DNA of 58,238 bases from Candidatus Didemnitutus sp. (GCA_035299365.1 DATGWS010000231.1:1-58238), one strand, 5' to 3'; numbered from the stretch's first letter, positions 13,437-26,194 are shown. Translations and numbers: made by a program. The notes: generated by a model from the letters alone, not told the origin.

Positions 13437-14559
13437 AAAAAGCTTCGTTGAAACTCAGATAGAACTGCACATCTCCCCTTGCGACCCCAGCGTCGAGTCG
13501 AAGTGAGATGCGTTCCTTTTCGTCGAACACGAACCGCAAGCCCCCTCCCCAACCTATCCAAAGGGATCGTGGACTGAGGAGTTCTGGTTTTGCCGCAACT
13601 TGACCTGCATCGATGAATGTTGCGCCACGAAAACGCCAGTAGATAGGAAACCGCAATTCGGCACTTGTGAGAATGGATATTCGATCGCGTTGTTGTGCGT
13701 CGATTACTCCGCGCAGATTGTTGTTTCCGCCAATGGATGGCCACATGATGAAGGTTGGAGTGCCAGCAATGTTCTGCATCATCAATCGGGCTGCGATGGA
13801 AACGCCATCTGTGATCTCGGTGTAGGCTCGTAGGTCAGCGGAGGTTAGTGTGGCTGTATAGGTACTGCCCAACATTGGACCGTATGCCACAAGAGTGGCT
13901 TCACAAAAGAGCCCCTTTCTAGCATCGAAGTTGTTATCGCGCGTGTCGTAGGAGATCATAGGGCCAATACCGTTGTACCACCCACCCGTACTGCCAACAA
14001 CAGATCCGGAGCCGAGCGGACCTATCGATCCATCTTCACGTGGTTCAATCTTCCGTATATCATCATACCGAACGTCAAGTCTAAGTCCAGCGCTGAGTCC
14101 ATTCTGTACACGCACACCACCTATCGCATGCAACGCTCGAACCTGCACGCGAAAGCCATTCGGTGTATAGAGTTCGGCATTTGAAGCGGGGTTCTCATTC
14201 CCGATCCCGAAGAATTTGTACGGATAGAGATACCACTCAGCAAGACCTTCTATGCGCATTCGATTACTGTCGAGATAGATCTCCGGATACAACCCTGCCG
14301 AGAACTGCGCATTCTGCGTTGCCTGCAACGCCACGGCCATCGATGATGCTCTGTACGTGGCATCCGATTCCGTTCTGTACTTCAGAAATGCCGTTAGCAC
14401 TCCCATGAACCGGGTTTCCGGGAAATACGCCACGATGGGAATGATCTCCCAGTCGAATCCGGTTTTTAAGGTGTCAGGGGGCTTCTCTTGCGCTCGCAGT
14501 AAGGCAGGACGTAGACAAACCACCAATACCAGGAGAGTGAAAACTACTCGCAGCCGCAT
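13435..14559 (-). CDS. Omp85/BamA-family outer-membrane beta-barrel protein (no obvious POTRA array)
   Basis: Trimmed to ATG 14559 (MRLRVVFTLLVLVVCL...). 'SIGGNNNLRGV' surface-antigen motif. Alternating beta-strand pattern and terminal '...YLSFNEAF' ending in Phe. Confidence 0.55.
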   Translation of the reverse strand: MRLRVVFTLLVLVVCLRPALLRAQEKPPDTLKTGFDWEIIPIVAYFPETRFMGVLTAFLKYRTESDATYRASSMAVALQATQNAQFSAGLYPEIYLDSNRMRIEGLAEWYLYPYKFFGIGNENPASNAELYTPNGFRVQVRALHAIGGVRVQNGLSAGLRLDVRYDDIRKIEPREDGSIGPLGSGSVVGSTGGWYNGIGPMISYDTRDNNFDARKGLFCEATLVAYGPMLGSTYTATLTSADLRAYTEITDGVSIAARLMMQNIAGTPTFIMWPSIGGNNNLRGVIDAQQRDRISILTSAELRFPIYWRFRGATFIDAGQVAAKPELLSPRSLWIGWGGGLRFVFDEKERISLRLDAGVARGDVQFYLSFNEAF

Positions 14560-16979: not shown

Positions 16980-17016
16980 CAACAACATGCCCACTCACTA
17001 TTTCAGGAATACTCGT

Positions 17017-18972
17017 ATGATTACGTCGAGATCCTTCTTTCGCGGCTGCCTCACATTGATAGCCGCACTATCGCTTGTCTCGTGCTCTAAGGACGATGGC
17101 TCATCCGGCGGAGCATTTTCCGGAGATGCAGCCTCACGCGTTTATGTTGCTCCAGGACAAAAGGACGAGTTCTATAGCTTTGTCTCAGGGGGCTTTAGCG
17201 GACAACTTGCCGTTTATGGTATTCCAAGCGGTAGGCTCTTCCGCGTTATCCCTGTCTTCTCCGTAGATCCGGAAAAGGGATGGGGCTTTACAGAAGAGAC
17301 AAAGCCAATGCTCAATACATCGCACGGTTTTGTCCCATGGGATGATTCGCACCACCCGGATATGTCGCAAACAGGTGGCGTAGCAGATGGCAAATGGGTT
17401 TTCATCAATGGAAACAATACGCCCCGAATCGCCCGCATTGACCTAACGGACTTCCGGACAAAGGAAATCCTAGAGATCCCAAACAGCGCAGGCAACCACT
17501 CTTCACCGTTCTCCACCGAGAACTCTGAATACGTGGTCTCCGGTACACGGTTCTCCGTACCTATTCCTCAAGAAGACATCTCTATCACACAATATTCGGA
17601 GAAGTTTCGCGGAGCTCTCACGTTTGTGAAGGTAGACAAGACATCTGGTCAGATGGATATCGACTTCCAGCTTCTCGTTCCTGGTTTTGATTACGACCTC
17701 GCACGTGCTGGCAAAGGTCCTTCACACGATTGGATGTTTATGTCGTGCTACAACACGGAACAAGCCAATACGATGAAAGAGATCAATGCTTCGCAGAACG
17801 ACAAAGACTTCATCATTGCGATCAACTGGAAAAAGTGCGCCGAACTTGCTGCCCAAGGCAAGGGCACGATCATGAATGTAGACTACGCTCACAATGTCTA
17901 CAATGATGCTACCCACTCAGCTACATCTACAATCAAGAAGCAGATCCGCATCCTTACAACTGCCGACATCAAGGGCGCACTCTATTACATGCCAACGCCA
18001 AAGTCACCACACGGCTGCGATGTTGATCCTTCCGGTGAACTCATTGTTGGTGGCGGCAAGCTTGCAACCGTTATCCCTGTAATGTCCTTCAGCAAGATGT
18101 TAAAGGCCATCGAAAGCGGAAAATTCGACAAAGAGATTGATGGCATTCCTGTATTGAACTACAAAGACTGTCTTGCAGGTGAAGTTGTACGTCCAGGCCT
18201 TGGACCTCTGCATACAGAGTTCGACGGAAAGGGCTATGCTTACACGTCGATGTTCGTTTCTTCAGAGATCGTCAAGTGGTCACTCAAGGACTTCAAGGTT
18301 GTAGATCGCGTTCCAACGTACTACTCCATTGGCCACCTCAATATCCCCGGTGGCAACTCTACAAAGCCTTGGGGCAAATACGTGATTGCGTATAACAAGA
18401 TCACCAAGGACAGATACCTGCCTACTGGTCCTGAGCTTACGCAGTCTGCACAGCTCTATGATATCTCCGGCGAGAAAATGAAGCTTCTTCTCGACTTCCC
18501 AACGATCGGTGAACCTCACTACGCTGTGGCGTGTCCGGCCGATCTGATCATGAAGAACTCGCGCAAGATGTATCAGCTTAAAGAGAACAAACACCCACAT
18601 GCAACGCTCAAAGAAGCAGACACCAAGGTAACCCGTAGTGGTAATGAGGTGCACGTCTACATGACGTCTATTCGTTCACACTTTTCACCCGACAACATCG
18701 AGGGTGTAAAGGTCGGAGACAAGGTGTATTGGCACGTAACCAATCTTGAACAAGACTGGGACGTTCCACACGGTTTTGCTGTGATCGGTGCCAACAACTC
18801 CGAACTCCTCATCATGCCGGGCGAAACATGCACGTTGCTCTGGGAACCAAAACGTGCCGGCGTCTTCCCGTTCTATTGCACAGACTTTTGCTCTGCTCTC
18901 CACCAGGAAATGCAAGGGTACGTTCGCGTCTCCAATGGCGGTAGTGGCCAGGTGACGTGGAATAAGAAATAA
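17017..18972 (+). CDS. nosZ: nitrous-oxide reductase NosZ, Sec-type (clade II)
   Basis: Trimmed to ATG 17017. Leader MITSRSFFRGCLTLIAALSLVSC has no twin-Arg. Propeller region carries conserved His ('DDSHHPDMSQ', 'AGNHSSPF', 'SPHGCDV'). C-terminal cupredoxin CuA motif 'CTDFCSALHQEMQGY'. Confidence 0.9.
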   Translation: MITSRSFFRGCLTLIAALSLVSCSKDDGSSGGAFSGDAASRVYVAPGQKDEFYSFVSGGFSGQLAVYGIPSGRLFRVIPVFSVDPEKGWGFTEETKPMLNTSHGFVPWDDSHHPDMSQTGGVADGKWVFINGNNTPRIARIDLTDFRTKEILEIPNSAGNHSSPFSTENSEYVVSGTRFSVPIPQEDISITQYSEKFRGALTFVKVDKTSGQMDIDFQLLVPGFDYDLARAGKGPSHDWMFMSCYNTEQANTMKEINASQNDKDFIIAINWKKCAELAAQGKGTIMNVDYAHNVYNDATHSATSTIKKQIRILTTADIKGALYYMPTPKSPHGCDVDPSGELIVGGGKLATVIPVMSFSKMLKAIESGKFDKEIDGIPVLNYKDCLAGEVVRPGLGPLHTEFDGKGYAYTSMFVSSEIVKWSLKDFKVVDRVPTYYSIGHLNIPGGNSTKPWGKYVIAYNKITKDRYLPTGPELTQSAQLYDISGEKMKLLLDFPTIGEPHYAVACPADLIMKNSRKMYQLKENKHPHATLKEADTKVTRSGNEVHVYMTSIRSHFSPDNIEGVKVGDKVYWHVTNLEQDWDVPHGFAVIGANNSELLIMPGETCTLLWEPKRAGVFPFYCTDFCSALHQEMQGYVRVSNGGSGQVTWNKK

Positions 18973-18984
18973 CGGAGTATTACC

Positions 18985-19572
18985 ATGAAACCCCTTCATC
19001 GGATCCTGATGGCACTGGGAGCAGTAGCCCTTCTCGGACTCTTCTTCTTCCCAATGTGGTCGATCACACTTGAGGCACCTCAGTATCCGAAAGGCAGCGA
19101 ACTAGGAATTGACATCCACATCAACAACGTGGAGGGTTCTCGGCCGAATGATCTCGACAACATCAACAACCTCAATCACTACATCGGCATGAAGCGTATT
19201 GAGCCTGACTCGATCCCAGAGCTAAAGTACATGCCGGTGATCGTTTTGGTCCTCGTTGGCCTTGGTCTCCTTGTGGCTGCCTTTGGCAAACGCTGGATGA
19301 TCCTCGTGTGGTTGGGCTTGTTGACTGGTGCCGGAGCTCTTGGGATGTACGATTTCTGGCTGTGGGAGTACGACTATGGACACAATCTTGATCCGCATGC
19401 GATCATTAAGATCGAGGGAATGTCCTATCAGCCACCACTCCTCGGCACGGAACAACTCCTGAATTTCACGGCCAGTTCCTATCCTGCTGTTGGATTTGCC
19501 TTCATTGCTCTCGGTGGACTTCTCGCTGTGATAGCATGGTGGCTAAGCCGACAACGCACAACTACTCACTAG
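18985..19572 (+). CDS. integral membrane protein in the position of nosB of clade II nos clusters
   Basis: 195 aa with ~4 TM segments. It lies immediately 3' of nosZ (12-nt gap), where atypical nos clusters carry a TM protein of unknown function. Assignment is by position, not by alignment. Confidence 0.5.
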   Translation: MKPLHRILMALGAVALLGLFFFPMWSITLEAPQYPKGSELGIDIHINNVEGSRPNDLDNINNLNHYIGMKRIEPDSIPELKYMPVIVLVLVGLGLLVAAFGKRWMILVWLGLLTGAGALGMYDFWLWEYDYGHNLDPHAIIKIEGMSYQPPLLGTEQLLNFTASSYPAVGFAFIALGGLLAVIAWWLSRQRTTTH

Positions 19573-19592: not shown

Positions 19593-20039
19593 ATGAAAAC
19601 ACTCATCATCTCCTCAGTCCTGGCATGTGTGGTACTTATCACGTCGTGCTCAGAACCTGAACCACGCAACATTGCCTATGGCAGTGACCAATGTGCTTCA
19701 TGCCGGATGGCCGTTACGGATCAGAAATTCGGTGCTGAGATCGTAACCACCACTGGGAAGATCTATACATTCGATTCACCGGAATGTATGATCGAGTGGA
19801 CTGAAGGGGGCTCCGTGTCTAAGTCTGATATCCATTCGTATTGGGTTACTGACTTCCTCCAACCCGGAAGCCTGATCGAAGCTCGCACGGCATGTTATCT
19901 CGAAAGCGAAATGATTCATTCCCCTATGGGATTGAACGTAGCTGCATTCCGCGATCAGCATGCCTGCGAGCGCGCTCGGGTGAATTTTGTTGGCACTGTA
20001 CGAACATATGATGACGTAGTCCACCTTGTAAACGATTGA
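19593..20039 (+). CDS. nosL: copper-binding lipoprotein NosL
   Basis: Trimmed to ATG 19593 (MKTLIISSVLACVVLITSC, lipobox). 'CASCRMAV' motif, ~150 aa, within the nos cluster. Confidence 0.75.
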   Translation: MKTLIISSVLACVVLITSCSEPEPRNIAYGSDQCASCRMAVTDQKFGAEIVTTTGKIYTFDSPECMIEWTEGGSVSKSDIHSYWVTDFLQPGSLIEARTACYLESEMIHSPMGLNVAAFRDQHACERARVNFVGTVRTYDDVVHLVND

Positions 20040-20079: not shown

Positions 20080-20865
20080 ATGAGTTCGTTTCAAATATTC
20101 CTCCTTGCGCTCGTGGCATTGTCTGTTGTAGGCTGCTCGTCTACAACGGACCCTGTACCGCCCCCTACCATCGATAAATTGCTCATCAGCAGTGCAACGG
20201 ATGCCGGATATACGGCAGAGGTCTACGCTACTGTGGCTCTTGCCGAGGGATACAACCCACTCTTTGTGCGTGTACTCCACAATGGTGTTGCTCTTTCAGA
20301 CGCACACGTTACAGTGGTACCAGACATGGACATGGGGACCATGCATCACTCTTGTCCGGTTGTGCAGCCCAACGACAGTATTCCGGACAGCACAGGCCTC
20401 TACAACTGCGCAGTGTTCTTTACCATGCCTAGCGCGACAGATTGGAAGGTAGGCGTAACGATCCACGACCATAGAACTGACACTACCGTTACTGTTCATG
20501 TCCCTGTATCGGTATCTGCAAATGGCAACGTGCGGATCGTTCAGGGTGCAGCTACCACGAAGTACATATTCACGTTGCTCAGTGATGGGTGGAAGGTTGG
20601 AATGAATGACGTGAAGTTCAACGTCTACCGCACAACGGATGGCTATGACCATACACCGGTTGATGATGCATCACTGAAGATGGTCCCAACCATGCCCTCA
20701 ATGGGTCACGGCTCTATGGGTAATGTTCACCCATCCTCAACAGATGGCGGATGGTATACCGGTCGCGCAAACTTCACCATGACCGGTGATTGGCAACTTG
20801 ATCTTACTGTTACCACCATGGATGCTCAGTCCTTTAACGCGAAGTACCAGATTGCTGTTCACTGA
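20080..20865 (+). CDS. lipoprotein with two tandem YtkA/FixH-like domains carrying Met/His-rich motifs (putative periplasmic Cu binding)
   Basis: Trimmed to ATG 20080 (MSSFQIFLLALVALSVVGC). Two ~110-aa repeats each contain a Met/His cluster ('VVPDMDMGTMHHSCP' and 'MVPTMPSMGHGSMGNVHP'). Each ends in a '(F)FTM..(D)W(K/Q)(V/L)' strand. Confidence 0.5.
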   Translation: MSSFQIFLLALVALSVVGCSSTTDPVPPPTIDKLLISSATDAGYTAEVYATVALAEGYNPLFVRVLHNGVALSDAHVTVVPDMDMGTMHHSCPVVQPNDSIPDSTGLYNCAVFFTMPSATDWKVGVTIHDHRTDTTVTVHVPVSVSANGNVRIVQGAATTKYIFTLLSDGWKVGMNDVKFNVYRTTDGYDHTPVDDASLKMVPTMPSMGHGSMGNVHPSSTDGGWYTGRANFTMTGDWQLDLTVTTMDAQSFNAKYQIAVH

Positions 20866-20867
20866 CC

Positions 20868-22874
20868 ATGAACGTCGTTGTTACCATAACTACCCTACTC
20901 CTCTTCTCAGCAACGGTAGCACGTTCTCAAGACACACTGCGCACCATAGTTGTACGGGAGGTGGTGGTTGAGGCAGATCCTCTATTGAAGTCGTGGCGGT
21001 TGAATCGCCCCTTATCATCATCCGGTTCCGTAGATGATCTTATGCGCTTGGGCGGTCTCACACTCATTCAACGCGCTAATGGATTTGCCGGCGAAGCCTC
21101 CATGTTAGGTCTCCGCGGCGGACAGATGAATACATCCATCGATGGTATGAAAATCCATGCTGCATGTGTTGACAAAATGGATCCGTCAACAGCATATGTT
21201 GAGATCGACAACCTTTCAACACTAGATGTATCGTCGGACGCAACGGATCTGAGGTACGGGCAAAATCTTGGTGGCTCGGTGAACTTCACTCTGAAGCAGC
21301 CTGCTCTGAACACGCCAGTTCGTTCGGTGATCGACATCTCGGGTGAGTCCAATGCCTCTATGCGCAGGTTGCGCGCAGATGTGTCCGGAGGAACTCCAGA
21401 CATAGCACTCCGAGCCGGGTACACGCTCCGGTCAGCCGATGACATGCGATCAGGCGATGGTACAACAATCGCATTGTCAGGATTCACTAAACACAATCTT
21501 CAGATAGGGGGCTTGTGGAAGGTTGGAGATCATGATAATGTTTCAGCAGTGCTGATCGCAGATCTAGCAACGGACGTGGGATATCCGGCATTGATCATGG
21601 ATACGCGAAAGGCACAAGCGCTTATTGGTGCTGTTACATGGCGGTCTGTGTGGTCATCGTTCGTTACCACCTCTACAAAGGTGTATGCGAATTCCGTTGA
21701 CCACAGCATGGACGATTATGATCGCCCCCTATCAGAGATTCAGAACCGGGCCTTCATGCCGAATATGTACATGCCGATGGTGGGTACTACCGCCGTCTAC
21801 GGATTGATCGTGGAGAGCGCCTACGCCGCATCGGAAGACATACTAAAGGTTGTTATCGATGGCACCTACCTCGCAGCCACGGCTACGATGAGCATGATGC
21901 CTCTCGATACCACAGTCTCTTCCATGCAATTGACCAACATTGGTGATGCCCGCGTTAGCACGCTCGGTACGAGTATCTCGTGGGAGAGAATGTTGTCGGA
22001 TGATCTCACCGTGCGTGTTGGGACTCGTGTTGATCTTTCCTCGCGAACCATTGAGGATAACCAATTCCGCAGTGTACTTGGTGGATATTTCCCAGGTATG
22101 GAACTCGACCGATTGACTGGTGCACTTTCCGCAAATGTCTCGGCGTATTACACGATAGCCGAGGGACTAAATGTATGGTCGGTCCTCGCTCGTAGTGAAC
22201 GTATGCCCACGCACTTGGAGCTTTACGGATTCTGGCTCTACGATCCTCAGGCAAACATCGTTACCATCGGACGTCCGGATCTGTCCAACGAGCAAGCATG
22301 GTCACTGGATATTGGTACCTCCTACCGTGATGAAGATCTTTCGCTCTCTATCTCCGGATGGATCCGCACAATCAACAACTATATCGCCGCAGTGCCCACT
22401 ATAGACACGTCTACAACTGGTGAGCCCCCTACCCGCACCATGGGCAGTATCGGTACAGCAGATCTTATGGGTTTTGATGCACGTGCAACCGTCCGTGTAC
22501 TACCGTGGTGGAGTATGCAGGCATCGGTACGGGGCATCTGGGGTGTTGGAGTTACGATCGACGATCCGCTTCCTCTAATCGCGCCTGTTCAGGCATCGAT
22601 ACGGGCAGTTGTTGGTGAACGTGTACTGCAAGGTGAATTAGCAGTCTTTGCGTCCACTGCCCAAAACCGCATATCACGCTCGATCCTACCGGAGGATGCC
22701 ACTGCTTCGTGGGCACGGGCAGACGTCTTGATCGCCTGGCGACCGATCGCCGAACTACGGATCCAGGCATCGTGCACAAACGTACTCGATACGTTTTATC
22801 ACGAGCATACCAGTATCAACAACATGCCGTCACGCGGACGCTCATTCAATCTAGGCGTCCGAGCAGAACTATGA
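20868..22874 (+). CDS. TonB-dependent outer-membrane receptor embedded in the nos operon
   Basis: Signal peptide, then plug-type N-terminus ('TIVVREVVVEAD...', 'RGGQMNTSIDGMKIH') and a long beta-barrel. Starts 2 nt after the lipoprotein stop, and its TGA overlaps the nosD ATG. Confidence 0.8.
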   Translation: MNVVVTITTLLLFSATVARSQDTLRTIVVREVVVEADPLLKSWRLNRPLSSSGSVDDLMRLGGLTLIQRANGFAGEASMLGLRGGQMNTSIDGMKIHAACVDKMDPSTAYVEIDNLSTLDVSSDATDLRYGQNLGGSVNFTLKQPALNTPVRSVIDISGESNASMRRLRADVSGGTPDIALRAGYTLRSADDMRSGDGTTIALSGFTKHNLQIGGLWKVGDHDNVSAVLIADLATDVGYPALIMDTRKAQALIGAVTWRSVWSSFVTTSTKVYANSVDHSMDDYDRPLSEIQNRAFMPNMYMPMVGTTAVYGLIVESAYAASEDILKVVIDGTYLAATATMSMMPLDTTVSSMQLTNIGDARVSTLGTSISWERMLSDDLTVRVGTRVDLSSRTIEDNQFRSVLGGYFPGMELDRLTGALSANVSAYYTIAEGLNVWSVLARSERMPTHLELYGFWLYDPQANIVTIGRPDLSNEQAWSLDIGTSYRDEDLSLSISGWIRTINNYIAAVPTIDTSTTGEPPTRTMGSIGTADLMGFDARATVRVLPWWSMQASVRGIWGVGVTIDDPLPLIAPVQASIRAVVGERVLQGELAVFASTAQNRISRSILPEDATASWARADVLIAWRPIAELRIQASCTNVLDTFYHEHTSINNMPSRGRSFNLGVRAEL

Positions 22875-24109
22875 AATACTTCGCAACGATCATCATCTCT
22901 CTCCTTGCCCTCAACGTATCGGCACATACCTTCCGTGCCTATACGTCGGGTGCTACAACGTTGCGTTCGGCAATAGCCATGGCGCATGATGGAGACACGA
23001 TTCTTGTGATGCCTGGCGTTCACAATGGAAGCGACTTTCAGGTTACCACTCGTGTAACGATCATCGGTAAACACGGTGCCGTAGTAGATGCACGGTCAAA
23101 GGGTGGCTCGATCTTCATTGTAAACGCAGATGGTGTAGCCTTTCGATCCCTCACCATCCGCAACGTGGCCATGAGCTACGTAGATGACAACGCGGCCATC
23201 AAGGTGATGAAAAGATCCGGCTTCGACATTGATGGCTGTAGAATTGAGAATGGGTTCTTTGCGATCTACCTCAGTAACTCTGCCAATTGCCGTATCGCAA
23301 ACAACACCATCATCGGCACCATGCGCGACGAGTCGGCCTCCGGCAATGGCATCCATGCATGGACATGTAGGAACATCCTCGTTACAGGCAATACCATCAT
23401 TGGCCACCGCGATGGCATCTACTTCGAATTCATGCGTCGTGGCACTGTCCTTAACAATCACAGCGAACGCAATGCTCGTTATGGACTTCACTTCATGTTC
23501 TCGGATTCATGTTCCTACCATAACAACATCTTCGGTGCGAATGGTGCAGGTGTAGCCGTGATGTACACCAAGAACATTGAAATGGTCGGTAACACATTTC
23601 GCGACAATTGGGGCCCAACGTCGTACGGACTTCTCCTCAAGGATATCACGGACGGTCACCTCAATGGCAATCACTTTGAACGGAACAGTATAGCCATTCA
23701 CGGAGAGGGGGCTAGCCGTCTCCTCATCGAGAACAATACCTTCCTCCGCAATGGATACGGCTTCCGCATTCTTGGCGGTTGTGAAGACAACACCGTTGTT
23801 CACAACACCTTTGATGGTAACACCTTTGACGTAACAACAAACACGCGCGAATCAAACAACCACTTCCAAGGCAACTACTGGAGCGCATACGAGGGATATG
23901 ATCTCAATCGCGATGGAATTGGTGATGTGCCATATCATCCTGTGCGTTTGTATTCGTTGTTGGTAGAACAACTTCCTTCCTCCGTGATCCTTATGCACAC
24001 GGCCTTCATCACTATGCTGGATCTTGCCGAGCGAATCGTACCAACAGTAACGCCGGAGACGCTGGTTGATGCAAAGCCCCTTATGCGACCTTTCACACAA
24101 CGACCATGA
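22871..24109 (+). CDS. nosD: NosD periplasmic beta-helix copper-maturation protein
   Basis: Trimmed to ATG 22871 (MKYFATIIISLLALNVSAHT). Repeated parallel beta-helix turns ('NNTIIGTMRD', 'GNTIIGHRDGIYF', 'NNIFGANGAGVAVMY', 'GNHFERNSIAIH'). ATGA overlap with nosF. Confidence 0.85.
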   Translation: MKYFATIIISLLALNVSAHTFRAYTSGATTLRSAIAMAHDGDTILVMPGVHNGSDFQVTTRVTIIGKHGAVVDARSKGGSIFIVNADGVAFRSLTIRNVAMSYVDDNAAIKVMKRSGFDIDGCRIENGFFAIYLSNSANCRIANNTIIGTMRDESASGNGIHAWTCRNILVTGNTIIGHRDGIYFEFMRRGTVLNNHSERNARYGLHFMFSDSCSYHNNIFGANGAGVAVMYTKNIEMVGNTFRDNWGPTSYGLLLKDITDGHLNGNHFERNSIAIHGEGASRLLIENNTFLRNGYGFRILGGCEDNTVVHNTFDGNTFDVTTNTRESNNHFQGNYWSAYEGYDLNRDGIGDVPYHPVRLYSLLVEQLPSSVILMHTAFITMLDLAERIVPTVTPETLVDAKPLMRPFTQRP

Positions 24110-24828
24110 TCAGCATTAACCACCTTCAGAAGTCCTTTCGATCGCTGCGAGTGATCAAGGATCTCACTACAACCCTTCCGTCCGGCAGTGTAACAGCCGT
24201 CATTGGTCCAAATGGCAGCGGAAAAACGACACTCATGAAGAGCATCGTTGGTCTCGTTCAGCCAGACTCGGGATCGATCCTCGTTGACGGCACAACTACG
24301 ATCAACAACCCGTCAAGCCGAATGCACATCGGGTATATGTCCCAAGTGGCACGGTATCCGGAGAACCTCACACCAACGGATCTGATCCAAATGGTAGGGG
24401 GCGTGCGGGCCGGACTCACCACTGACATCGCAGATGAGCTCATTACAGACATGCAACTCGAAGACCACATGAAGAAGCCGATGCGTGCTTTGAGTGGTGG
24501 TACCCGTCAGAAGGTGGGTGCCGTGATAGCCTTCATGTTCCGTCCCACAACGTTGCTGCTCGACGAACCAACAGCCGGGCTCGATCCCGTTGTCACGGAG
24601 CGGTTGAAAGAACGCATCTCAGCACTTCGTGATGGCGGAACCACGATTCTCATCACCTCTCACGTGTTGTCGGAAATCCAGGAACTGGCAGACCGCATCA
24701 TCTACCTGCATGAAGGTCTTGTGATGTTCGACGGTGCAGTACAAGAGCTTCTCACACAGACCGGACATACATCTCTATCGAAGTCTGTGGCATCTATCAT
24801 GTCGAGAGAATTGGGCGGTGTACAATGA
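24106..24828 (+). CDS. nosF: NosF ABC-transporter ATPase
   Basis: Walker A 'GPNGSGKTT', signature 'LSGGTRQK', Walker B 'LLLDEPTAGLD'. Lies between nosD and nosY. Confidence 0.85.
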   Translation: MISINHLQKSFRSLRVIKDLTTTLPSGSVTAVIGPNGSGKTTLMKSIVGLVQPDSGSILVDGTTTINNPSSRMHIGYMSQVARYPENLTPTDLIQMVGGVRAGLTTDIADELITDMQLEDHMKKPMRALSGGTRQKVGAVIAFMFRPTTLLLDEPTAGLDPVVTERLKERISALRDGGTTILITSHVLSEIQELADRIIYLHEGLVMFDGAVQELLTQTGHTSLSKSVASIMSRELGGVQ

Positions 24829-25607
24829 GAACCACCTCACTCCTCCTGAAATACGTCGTACGCGACGTGATGCGTAGCAAATGGCTTGGACTGTACCTCA
24901 TCTTCTTTGCAGCAGTGACAGAGGGTCTTCTTTTCTTCACAGCCGGTGAAGCCAAGACCGTTGTCGGACTAATGAACGTAGTCCTTCTTCTCATCCCCTT
25001 GGCTGCCGCAGTGTTCGGTACACTCCACGTTCATCACAACCGAGACTTCGTAGAGCTTATGCTCACGCAGCCCGTATCTCGTAACGCCATCTACGTTGCT
25101 CTCTACCTCGGCGTTAGCCTACCGTTCCTCATTGCTTTTGTTGTTGGTATTGGTGTACCTGCTGCCGTGCATGGTGTATTGCTTACAGCACCCATCCTTA
25201 CTTTGCTAGCAACCGGTTGTGCACTGACCATGGTCTTCTTTGCGATCGCCTACCTCATCGGTGTGATCGTCCAAGACAAGGCAGCCGCCATGGGTGTTGC
25301 GTTCATCTCCTGGCTTTCGTTCGCCGTCTTGTATGATGGCGTGATCCTTGTTCTTACGGTACTGTTCGCCGACTACCCGCTCGAAAAGGCCACCATTGCG
25401 ATGGTCGTCTGCAATCCCATCGATCTGGCCCGCATCATCGTTATGCTCACGTTCGATTATGCCGCGCTCATGGGCTATACGGGGGCTGTGTTCCAAGAGT
25501 TCTTCGGCACAGCAACCGGTGTTGTTATCTCTTCCTGTTCACTCATTGTCTGGACGCTTCTTCCGGTCTTCATTGGCCGTAGAGCATTCGGGCGTAAAGA
25601 CTGGTGA
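24825..25607 (+). CDS. nosY: NosY ABC-2 type permease
   Basis: 260 aa with ~6 TM segments. ATGA overlap with nosF. Confidence 0.8.
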   Translation: MRTTSLLLKYVVRDVMRSKWLGLYLIFFAAVTEGLLFFTAGEAKTVVGLMNVVLLLIPLAAAVFGTLHVHHNRDFVELMLTQPVSRNAIYVALYLGVSLPFLIAFVVGIGVPAAVHGVLLTAPILTLLATGCALTMVFFAIAYLIGVIVQDKAAAMGVAFISWLSFAVLYDGVILVLTVLFADYPLEKATIAMVVCNPIDLARIIVMLTFDYAALMGYTGAVFQEFFGTATGVVISSCSLIVWTLLPVFIGRRAFGRKDW

Positions 25608-25645: not shown

Positions 25646-26194
25646 ATGCGTACGTTATTGACACTCGCTCTTATCTGTAGCACGGCATTCGTGTTCGGAT
25701 GTTCGTCCAGCTCAGAGCAACCAAAGGAAGCAGAAGCAGTGGCTGGAGGTCCTTCAGGTCAAGCCCTTGTGCAAGACGATGAATCACAGCCAGACATCCT
25801 TAAGGTAGCCGGTGGGTCCAAAGATCACACCACATTAGTTGCGGCCATTAAGGCAGCAGGACTTGAGAACACCCTGTCCAATGCGGGCCCCTTTACAGTC
25901 TTTGCTCCAACAGATGCTGCGTTCGGCAAACTTCCAGCTGGAACCGTTGAGGATCTTGTGAAGCCGGAGAACATTGACAAGCTCTCAACGATACTGTATC
26001 ACCACGTTTTGACGTCGGCCATGGACCAGTCCAACTTCACTAATGGTCAAGTTGTGAAGATGTTTGACGGTTCTCCAGTGACCATGACCATCGACGGAGA
26101 TGGTTGGAAGATCGATGGTGCTAAGATCGTGGGATCTGTCCGCGCCTCGAACGGCTGGGTTCACGTAGTGGATGCCGTTGTGGTTCCGAAGTAG
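25646..26194 (+). CDS. fasciclin (FAS1) domain lipoprotein
   Basis: Trimmed to ATG 25646 (MRTLLTLALICSTAFVFGC). 'TVFAPTDAAFGKLPAGTVEDL', 'ILYHHVL' and 'NGWVHVVDAVVVPK'. Confidence 0.8.
   Translation: MRTLLTLALICSTAFVFGCSSSSEQPKEAEAVAGGPSGQALVQDDESQPDILKVAGGSKDHTTLVAAIKAAGLENTLSNAGPFTVFAPTDAAFGKLPAGTVEDLVKPENIDKLSTILYHHVLTSAMDQSNFTNGQVVKMFDGSPVTMTIDGDGWKIDGAKIVGSVRASNGWVHVVDAVVVPK

Follow-up and report, generated by a model that had tools for sequence, protein, structure and literature searches.

Candidatus Didemnitutus sp. carries a clade II nitrous oxide (N2O) reductase operon (nos) on a stretch of 58,238 nucleotides (GCA_035299365.1 DATGWS010000231.1:1-58238), called the window here. The analysis assigned the genome, a metagenome assembly, to Candidatus Kapaibacterium of the uncultured Kapabacteria. 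Two extra genes lie between nosL and nosD. The first encodes a lipoprotein with two YtkA/CrdA-like domains, each with a cluster of methionine and histidine residues, and the second encodes a TonB-dependent receptor resembling OprC and NosA. On the plus strand, the genes are arranged in the order Rrf2, RIC/ScdA di-iron protein, cytochrome c, nosZ, nosB, nosL, lipoprotein, TonB-dependent receptor, nosD, nosF, nosY and fasciclin lipoprotein. The operon shows the clade II features: nosZ has a leader that is not of the twin-arginine type, nosB, nosL and nosDFY are present, nosR and nosX are missing, and the order is kept in the relatives.

The two junctions described in an earlier note on this DNA were confirmed in the sequence. 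The stop codon TGA of the lipoprotein gene (20863-20865) is followed by the dinucleotide cc and the receptor ATG at 20868, leaving a gap of 2 nt, and the TGA of the receptor gene (22872-22874) overlaps with the ATG of nosD (22871-22873) as ATGA. The note had also regarded the two genes as additions to the operon. This was corroborated by three other members of the family (G264, G305 and G031), in whose genomes nosD comes straight after nosL. The stretch from nosL to nosD was found unbroken in independently assembled metagenome contigs from soil, groundwater and wastewater with 0-23 differences, and therefore the arrangement is not a chimera or an assembly artefact. A scan of the operon for promoters and terminators gave nothing above the shuffled expectation, which is neutral on internal signals. 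The only metatranscriptome holding the sequence, X19 from sediment, contained a single contig of 256 nt over nosL (window positions 19600-19851) at a depth of 2 and is uninformative on the two extra genes.

Pfam gave no match for NosB when the window proteins were scanned, and the NCBIfam scan gave none for the lipoprotein, NosB or NosL. The fasciclin-domain lipoprotein gene recurs at the end of or beside clade II nos clusters at other loci (L014-L017, L066, L074, L083 and L090), and in two of them, L074 and L090, it directly follows the copper receptor gene. The positions of the features are collected in Table 1.

Table 1. Positions of genes and motifs in the window and of leader genes at other loci
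Feature	Position	Strand	Remarks
nosZ	16987..18972	+	clade II, Sec/lipoprotein-type leader; 60-99% identity to NosZ of relatives
nosB	18985..19572	+	clade II membrane protein; position constant in all related nos clusters
nosL	19593..20039	+	copper chaperone lipoprotein; Pfam NosL PF05573, E 1.8e-9
Tandem YtkA/CrdA-like Met/His lipoprotein	20080..20865	+	261 aa; Pfam PF13115 in two stretches
Predicted domain-1 metal motif VVPDMDMGTMHHSCP	20314..20358	+	residues 79-93; M83, M85, H90, P93 invariant
Predicted domain-2 metal motif MVPTMPSMGHGSMGNVHP	20680..20733	+	residues 201-218; P203, M205, P206, S207, M208, H210, S212, P218 invariant
Putative OprC/NosA-type TonB-dependent copper receptor	20868..22874	+	668 aa; Pfam Plug + TonB_dep_Rec barrel
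Plug motif C100-V-D-K-M104	21165..21179	+	aligned to 6fok; corresponds to OprC Cys143/Met147
Barrel motif H279-S-M281	21702..21710	+	corresponds to OprC His323/Met325; 179 residues after C100
Met-rich loop MPNMYMPM (M297-M304)	21756..21779	+	aligns with OprC methionine-track residues M339-M343
nosD	22871..24109	+	TIGR04247, 386 bits, exceeds cut-off
nosF (ATP-binding cassette ATPase)	24106..24828	+	open reading frame; orthologues in all nos loci
nosY (ATP-binding cassette permease)	24825..25607	+	open reading frame; orthologues in all nos loci
Fasciclin-domain lipoprotein	25646-26194	+	at end of the window's nos operon
Leader open reading frame, example 1	L057:9386-9763	+	
Leader open reading frame, example 2	L034:9501-9869	+	
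Leader open reading frame, example 3	L024:6327-6704	+	

The receptor and its predicted copper ligands

The only sequence match of the receptor in the PDB was OprC (6fok, E 3e-14), with an identity of 18-19%. In NCBIfam, the best family was TIGR01778 (TonB-copper) with an E-value of 1.6e-33 versus 1e-16 for the next family. The AlphaFold2 model of the receptor reached a predicted local distance difference test score (pLDDT) of 88.8. When the model was compared with the PDB by Foldseek, the top 28 matches were all OprC, with E-values of about 1e-46 and template modelling (TM) scores of 0.83-0.87. These were followed by haem and zinc receptors, the next being PhuR at 1.5e-39. The earlier note had proposed the classification of the receptor as a critical check in advance, and no grouping with siderophore, cobalamin or oligosaccharide receptors was found. 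A siderophore, cobalamin or SusC-like receptor was rejected as OprC leads in sequence, NCBIfam and fold.

In OprC, copper is bound by Cys143, Met147, His323 and Met325 (PMC8610252). All four ligands are kept in the receptor of the window, with a spacing of 179 residues between the two motifs compared with 180 in OprC, and both proteins have a Met-rich loop after the HxM motif. The pair of CxxxM and HxM motifs, 177-189 residues apart, was present in all of the full-length partner receptors that were scanned (83/83) and invariant in the 42 that were aligned. The loop is kept in the partner receptors as MPGMYMPM or MHMDMPG, and the methionines M94, M244, M302, M304, M341 and M343 are also invariant. 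Among the 504 open reading frames of at least 550 aa in the window's genome, this receptor alone has the motif pair. An OprC-like receptor with the motif has been noted earlier in a flavobacterium (PMC11213822).

Like OprC of Pseudomonas aeruginosa and NosA of P. stutzeri (TIGR01778; PDB 6fok, 6z8q), the receptor is predicted to combine a plug with a 22-strand barrel. It differs from them in its low identity, below the equivalog cut-off of the family, and in its hosts, which are Bacteroidota, Ignavibacteria and Kapabacteria rather than Proteobacteria. It is also paired with a tandem YtkA lipoprotein and, in the window, encoded inside the nos operon. NosA has a historical link to the copper loading of NosZ. 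OprC is highly copper-specific and occurs in many non-denitrifiers, and both OprC and NosA are copper-repressed (PMC8610252). Taken together, the PDB match, TIGR01778, the fold and the four ligands agree with the OprC/NosA likeness implied in the earlier note. We infer that the receptor belongs, as a remote relative, to the TonB-dependent transporters of the OprC/NosA type and has ionic copper as its substrate.

The tandem-domain lipoprotein

The N-terminus of the lipoprotein, MSSFQIFLLALVALSVVGC, has the lipobox VVGC with Cys19 as the lipid-carrying residue. Domain 1 extends over residues 34-146 and domain 2 over residues 151-260, approximately. The Pfam family YtkA-like (PF13115) matched the protein in two stretches with 62.9 bits at a gathering threshold of 25.9 (E 4.5e-17) and was present in each of 76 homologues (76/76). 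The two halves align weakly, with 33% identity over 58 residues (E 0.001), and AlphaFold2 modelled two beta-sandwich domains from a 24-sequence alignment with a pLDDT of 91.4. The internal duplication proposed earlier was thus found in the Pfam matches, in the alignment of the halves and in the model. The proposed YtkA-like character with a Met/His cluster in each half, VVPDMDMGTMHHSCP and MVPTMPSMGHGSMGNVHP, also proved correct.

In an alignment of 24 lipoprotein homologues with identities down to 23%, nearly all of the invariant residues were of metal-ligand types or belonged to the framework. Besides those in the two motifs, they were F114, M116 and W122 in domain 1 and M234, G236 and W238 in domain 2. 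A sequence search of the PDB gave only a marginal match, CrdA (E 0.04), and the best match among the solved structures was CrdA of Helicobacter pylori as well (9ll2 and 9ll4, apo and silver-bound), with a TM of 0.63 normalised on CrdA. CrdA (HP1326) shares the Met loop M-x-P-x-M-P-[GS]-M with the lipoprotein, its MMPEMPGM aligning with MVPTMPSM of domain 2, and also the strand N-x-[ST]-M-x-G-x-W. In contrast to the lipoprotein, CrdA consists of one domain and lacks His, and it is periplasmic and tied to an efflux system and copper resistance. It has been crystallised with silver ions (PDB 9ll4). CrdA binds Cu(II) at micromolar affinity, and sub-nanomolar binding of Cu(I) was proposed but not detected (PMC9182242). 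From the motifs, each domain of the lipoprotein is predicted to form a Met-x-Met...His (+Met) site of the Cu(I)-binding type, and copper binding by the protein of the window is strongly suggested.

The YtkA protein of Bacillus subtilis, CtaK, is a lipoprotein with conserved His and Met residues (PMC9145763). Genetic evidence shows that CtaK is needed for the assembly of CuA at low copper (PMC9145763, PMC13344008), and for CtaK and YcnJ the evidence for a copper role of the YtkA domain is genetic throughout (PMC13344008, PMC9145763). Outside Bacillus, no YtkA domain has been studied (PMC12362106). In the nos cluster of Geobacillus thermodenitrificans, a YtkA-domain protein was reported in the place of NosL (PMC13068155). 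These proteins have in common the YtkA-like beta-sandwich, the conserved His and Met residues and the context of copper-centre assembly (CuA, NosZ). The lipoprotein of the window differs from YtkA/CtaK in that it has two tandem domains, belongs to a Gram-negative host with an outer-membrane receptor as a partner, and is probably surface-exposed in most of its orthologues. It coexists with NosL, whereas the Geobacillus protein replaces it. Each part of the pair has known counterparts, the receptor resembling OprC/NosA and the lipoprotein domains YtkA/CrdA.

Distribution of the pair and its link to nos genes

With a profile of the lipoprotein, 80 loci were collected from GTDB. In 75 of these, the receptor gene adjoins the lipoprotein gene in the same direction and lies downstream of it. 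The hosts are mostly Bacteroidota and Ignavibacteria, with Kapabacteria and a few metagenome-assembled genomes (MAGs) labelled Balneolaceae, Calditrichota or Myxococcota, and they include cultured isolates of Pedobacter, Pontibacter, Mariniphaga, Edaphocola, Cryomorpha and Brumimicrobium. The lipoprotein-receptor pair is a widespread free-standing cassette that is not confined to the operon of the window. The earlier note had seen it as the operon's own special route for copper. This part of the note did not hold, as about 70% of the loci sampled lack nos genes at distances of up to 10 kb.

The cassettes without nos linkage are often found near genes for Crp/Fnr, Rrf2, truncated globin, anaerobic ribonucleotide reductase and an unannotated polytopic membrane protein of 408 aa (for example L090:7501-9329 and 13559-13936, L057:8566-9294 and L108:6441-8570). 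These neighbours hint at an anaerobic or nitric oxide-responsive regulon. Three MAG contigs labelled Hyphomicrobiales/Bradyrhizobiaceae (L030, L035 and L037) contain a clade II nos operon that resembles those of Kapabacteria and includes the cassette; their NosZ is 70-79% identical to that of the window and their receptors nest among those of Kapabacteria. A binning or labelling error is more probable here than a transfer to Alphaproteobacteria. At L027:3058-4954 (G039:C144), NosZ matches in two pieces in different frames (residues 23-417 and 417-650), which indicates either a frameshift in nosZ or a misassembly.

In 69 of 97 cassette loci, a third gene was found upstream of the lipoprotein gene. 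Its product of about 125 aa has a hydrophobic segment at the N-terminus and the motif C-x-N-K-x-x-P-x3-C-x-G-K-C. After a spacer of 60-69 residues with little conservation comes x-x-P-P, in most cases FHPP, located 1-8 residues ahead of the stop. This leader protein had no match in Pfam or NCBIfam. A hidden Markov model search did not find it in the operon of the window or in the whole genome, and it was absent from every locus that has the pair between nosL and nosD. At the cassettes elsewhere, the leader resembles CruR (DUF2946), the copper-sensing arrest leader of the TonB-receptor operon cruR-bfrG-bp2921 of Bordetella pertussis (PMC9426467), as a small exported open reading frame that heads the operon and in which a spacer of constant length and low conservation separates a Cys motif from a PP motif 1-8 residues before the stop. 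It differs from CruR in that it has no DUF2946 match, CxGxC instead of CXXC, a spacing of about 64 instead of 45 residues and FHPP instead of RAPP. In the bfrG operon, the partner of the receptor is a PepSY_TM protein and not a tandem YtkA lipoprotein (PMC9426467).

The link to NosZ was analysed in 37 genomes of the window's family and in a phylum sample of 401 genomes. Within the family, NosZ is present in 9 genomes, and in 8 of these the complete cassette separates nosL from nosD. In the ninth, G031, nosD comes straight after nosL, the receptor is missing and the only YtkA-like match, a partial one, lies on another contig. Neither the lipoprotein nor the receptor gene was found in the family genomes without NosZ (0/28). 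In the phylum sample, the lipoprotein occurs in 55 and NosZ in 135 of the 401 genomes. NosZ was found in 38 of the 55 cassette carriers and in 97 of the 346 non-carriers, giving an odds ratio of 5.7 (p 8e-9 in a Fisher test that takes no account of phylogeny). Cassette and NosZ are at most 15 kb apart in about 14 of the 38 genomes that have both.

The cassette takes at least four different positions relative to the nos genes. It lies between nosL and nosD in Kapabacteria and a few MAGs, after nosY in many Bacteroidota and Ignavibacteria, between nosB and nosL in L095, and in divergent orientation next to the fasciclin gene in L074 and L090. On the receptor tree, the nosL/nosD type forms essentially one clade and the state after nosY requires at least eight changes; the nos linkage therefore arose or dissolved many times. 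Among the genomes with an empty site, G031 came from the sample of relatives, and G264 and G305 from the phylum sample. The latter two are congeneric with cassette carriers, which shows that the cassette is gained or lost within genera.

Probable copper supply to NosZ and competing explanations

The pair is probably a copper-acquisition cassette that was spliced into a clade II nos operon. The receptor would bind ionic copper at a site formed by Cys-Met in the plug and His-Met in the barrel, fed by the Met-rich loop, and would bring it into the periplasm with the energy of TonB. The lipoprotein would be its dedicated partner, capturing copper at the cell surface and handing it over to the Met loop of the receptor. 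The imported copper could then pass to NosL and NosDFY, which are encoded on either side, and on to the CuA and CuZ centres of NosZ. Delivery of copper to NosZ by NosL and NosDFY is described as established for Pseudomonas stutzeri in PMC13068155, and we infer the same for the window. The translational coupling would put copper import under the control of N2O reductase expression, in place of the Cys-rich leader that is usual for the cassette. From sequences and models, we put the probability that the pair is a copper-import cassette serving NosZ maturation in the window's genome at about 75%.

Several observations weigh against this interpretation. The members of the cassette are so far known from sequence analysis, and it is disputed whether NosA of P. 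stutzeri takes part in the metallation of NosZ (PMC8610252). The receptor scored 116.4 bits at an equivalog cut-off of 472.45 for TIGR01778, which places it in a distant subfamily that is not an equivalog. Because of this score and the low identity to OprC, its substrate is deduced from the ligands and the fold. The association statistics ignore that the genomes are not phylogenetically independent. No nos genes lie within 10 kb at 58 of the 80 loci, leaving 22 where the pair stands with NosL/NosD, and 17 of the 55 carriers lack NosZ, so NosZ is not the sole client. The window's genome also encodes several haem-copper oxidases of the COX1 family that require copper. The empty-site operons L109 (G264), L110 (G305) and L111 (G031) have the order Rrf2-RIC-cytochrome c-nosZBLDFY with nosL-nosD gaps of about 50-130 bp. 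Since the nos operon of these close relatives does without the cassette, the cassette is accessory and not integral. The lipoprotein of the window begins with C-S-S-T-T-D-P and has no recognised surface-export signal, and a search of its genome for SusD (PF07980), meant to calibrate the Kapabacterial export signal, found none. We conclude that the copper-supply idea of the earlier note is well supported by the OprC ligands, the fold and the association with nos, and has to be corrected in that the cassette is not an integral part of the nos operon. It is an accessory copper-supply module with a strong but non-exclusive association with NosZ.

The site of action of the lipoprotein was deduced from the residues that follow the lipid cysteine. 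Their consensus in the family is K-K-[DE]-[DE], with K at +3 in 53%, D/E at +4 in 63% and D/E at +5 in 56%, and most of the Bacteroidota orthologues carry such a K-K-(D/E)-(D/E) signal. In Capnocytophaga canimorsus, the surface-export signal was defined experimentally as Q-K-D-D-E, with K at +3 in 72%, D at +4 in 48% and D at +5 in 44% (PMC5080379). The NosL, fasciclin, cytochrome c and NosZ lipoproteins of the same loci do not show the K-K-[DE]-[DE] signal. The export signal, the fact that the gene is paired with the receptor gene (75/80) and not with the nos genes, and the restriction to lineages that export lipoproteins to the surface suggest a role in surface copper capture. Most likely, the lipoprotein family acts on the cell surface, where it would capture copper and hand it to the receptor in the manner of BtuG with BtuB or HmuY with HmuR.

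The earlier note had the lipoprotein in the periplasm, taking copper from the receptor and passing it on to NosL and NosD. Such a relay would resemble that of CtaK with Sco or of CusF with CusB. The characterised YtkA/CrdA relatives are periplasmic or extracytoplasmic chaperones, a YtkA-domain protein substitutes for NosL in the Geobacillus cluster, and in the window the lipoprotein gene is located immediately 3' of nosL. The orthologues of the nosL-nosD type, among them the Kapabacterial proteins, begin with C-[ST]-[ST]-T-T-[DE]-P, and all of them, like the protein of the window, lack the K-(D/E)2 signal. However, the good export signal of most Bacteroidota orthologues points to a position upstream of the receptor, the strict pairing is with the receptor and not with NosL/NosD (22/80), and the need for a second periplasmic chaperone is not obvious since NosL is present anyway. 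A periplasmic relay of this kind was thus not supported and seems to us the less likely reading. For the window's own lipoprotein, the odds between surface and periplasm are roughly even.

A general copper uptake without a special tie to NosZ would explain the many cassettes that lie away from nos genes and the carriers without NosZ. The cassette would then serve all periplasmic and membrane copper enzymes, and its proximity to nos would follow from a shared induction under anoxic, copper-poor conditions. The Crp/Fnr, Rrf2, truncated-globin and anaerobic ribonucleotide reductase genes beside the unlinked cassettes are in line with this, as are the several COX1-family oxidases of the window's genome and the presence of OprC in many non-denitrifiers (PMC8610252). 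However, in the window's family the cassette is confined to NosZ carriers, although the other members presumably have oxidases too. The repeated independent linkage inside nos operons and the translational coupling found here argue for selection on joint expression with the genes of NosZ maturation, and we therefore regard general uptake without a tie to NosZ as unlikely.

Copper tolerance, with the lipoprotein sequestering Cu(I) like CrdA and the barrel taking part in efflux or buffering to shield NosZ assembly from copper or silver stress, is very improbable: CrdA, which gave the best fold match, is a determinant of copper resistance and Met-rich sites are typical of the detoxification proteins CusF, PcoC and PcoE (PMC9182242), but the barrel, with its plug and the uptake site of OprC, is that of a TonB-dependent importer, OprC and NosA are copper-repressed (PMC8610252), and the cassette contains no efflux pump or multicopper oxidase. 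There is equally little to be said for a receptor that takes up haem, a soft metal different from copper or a complex of copper with a chalkophore instead of the copper ion, to which the low identity to OprC and the haem and zinc receptors as the next-best families might point, as no member of the receptor family departs from the four OprC ligands and the Met loop, OprC is highly copper-specific (PMC8610252) and the partner lipoprotein has Met/His motifs of the Cu(I) type.

With the pair read as a copper-import cassette, its closest parallels in organisation are SusD-SusC, BtuG-BtuB and HmuY-HmuR. Like the cassette, whose genes are presumably co-transcribed, these have adjacent, co-transcribed genes for a lipoprotein and a transporter, a surface signal, which most of the cassette orthologues share, and a range mainly within the Fibrobacterota-Chlorobiota-Bacteroidota (FCB) group. 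The cassette differs in that its ligand would be a bare metal ion and not a glycan, a corrinoid or haem, in that the lipoprotein fold is unrelated, and in that a complex of its two proteins is so far hypothetical. A wider proposal is offered as tentative, at somewhat less than even odds: a surface lipoprotein with two Cu(I) sites and an OprC-like transporter may capture bare metal ions on a SusCD-like logic in Bacteroidota, Ignavibacteria and Kapabacteria. In the free-standing form, control would lie with a nascent-peptide copper sensor similar to CruR (CxGxC, about 64 residues, FHPP, stop). The cassette would have been recruited repeatedly into clade II nos operons, with gain and loss within genera, and could mark those N2O reducers that are able to keep NosZ metallated in copper-poor habitats.

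A partial literature search found no paper on the pairing of a YtkA lipoprotein with a TonB-dependent receptor, nor on such an insertion in nos clusters, and the tandem-domain lipoprotein, its surface-export signal and the Cys/PP leader were likewise undescribed there. In the literature covered, a lipoprotein partner for a TonB-dependent transporter of ionic metal is apparently an undescribed mechanism. Since several cultured isolates carry the cassette, the hypothesis is directly testable. The NosZ dimer needs 12 Cu, and N2O reduction in soils, sediments and wastewater is limited by the supply of copper. Clade II reducers of the Bacteroidota group are major sinks of N2O. A dedicated copper importer, at times embedded in the operon, would explain how NosZ is metallated in the clade II reducers, and the polymorphism of the cassette is a potential marker that could be compared with N2O emission at low copper.

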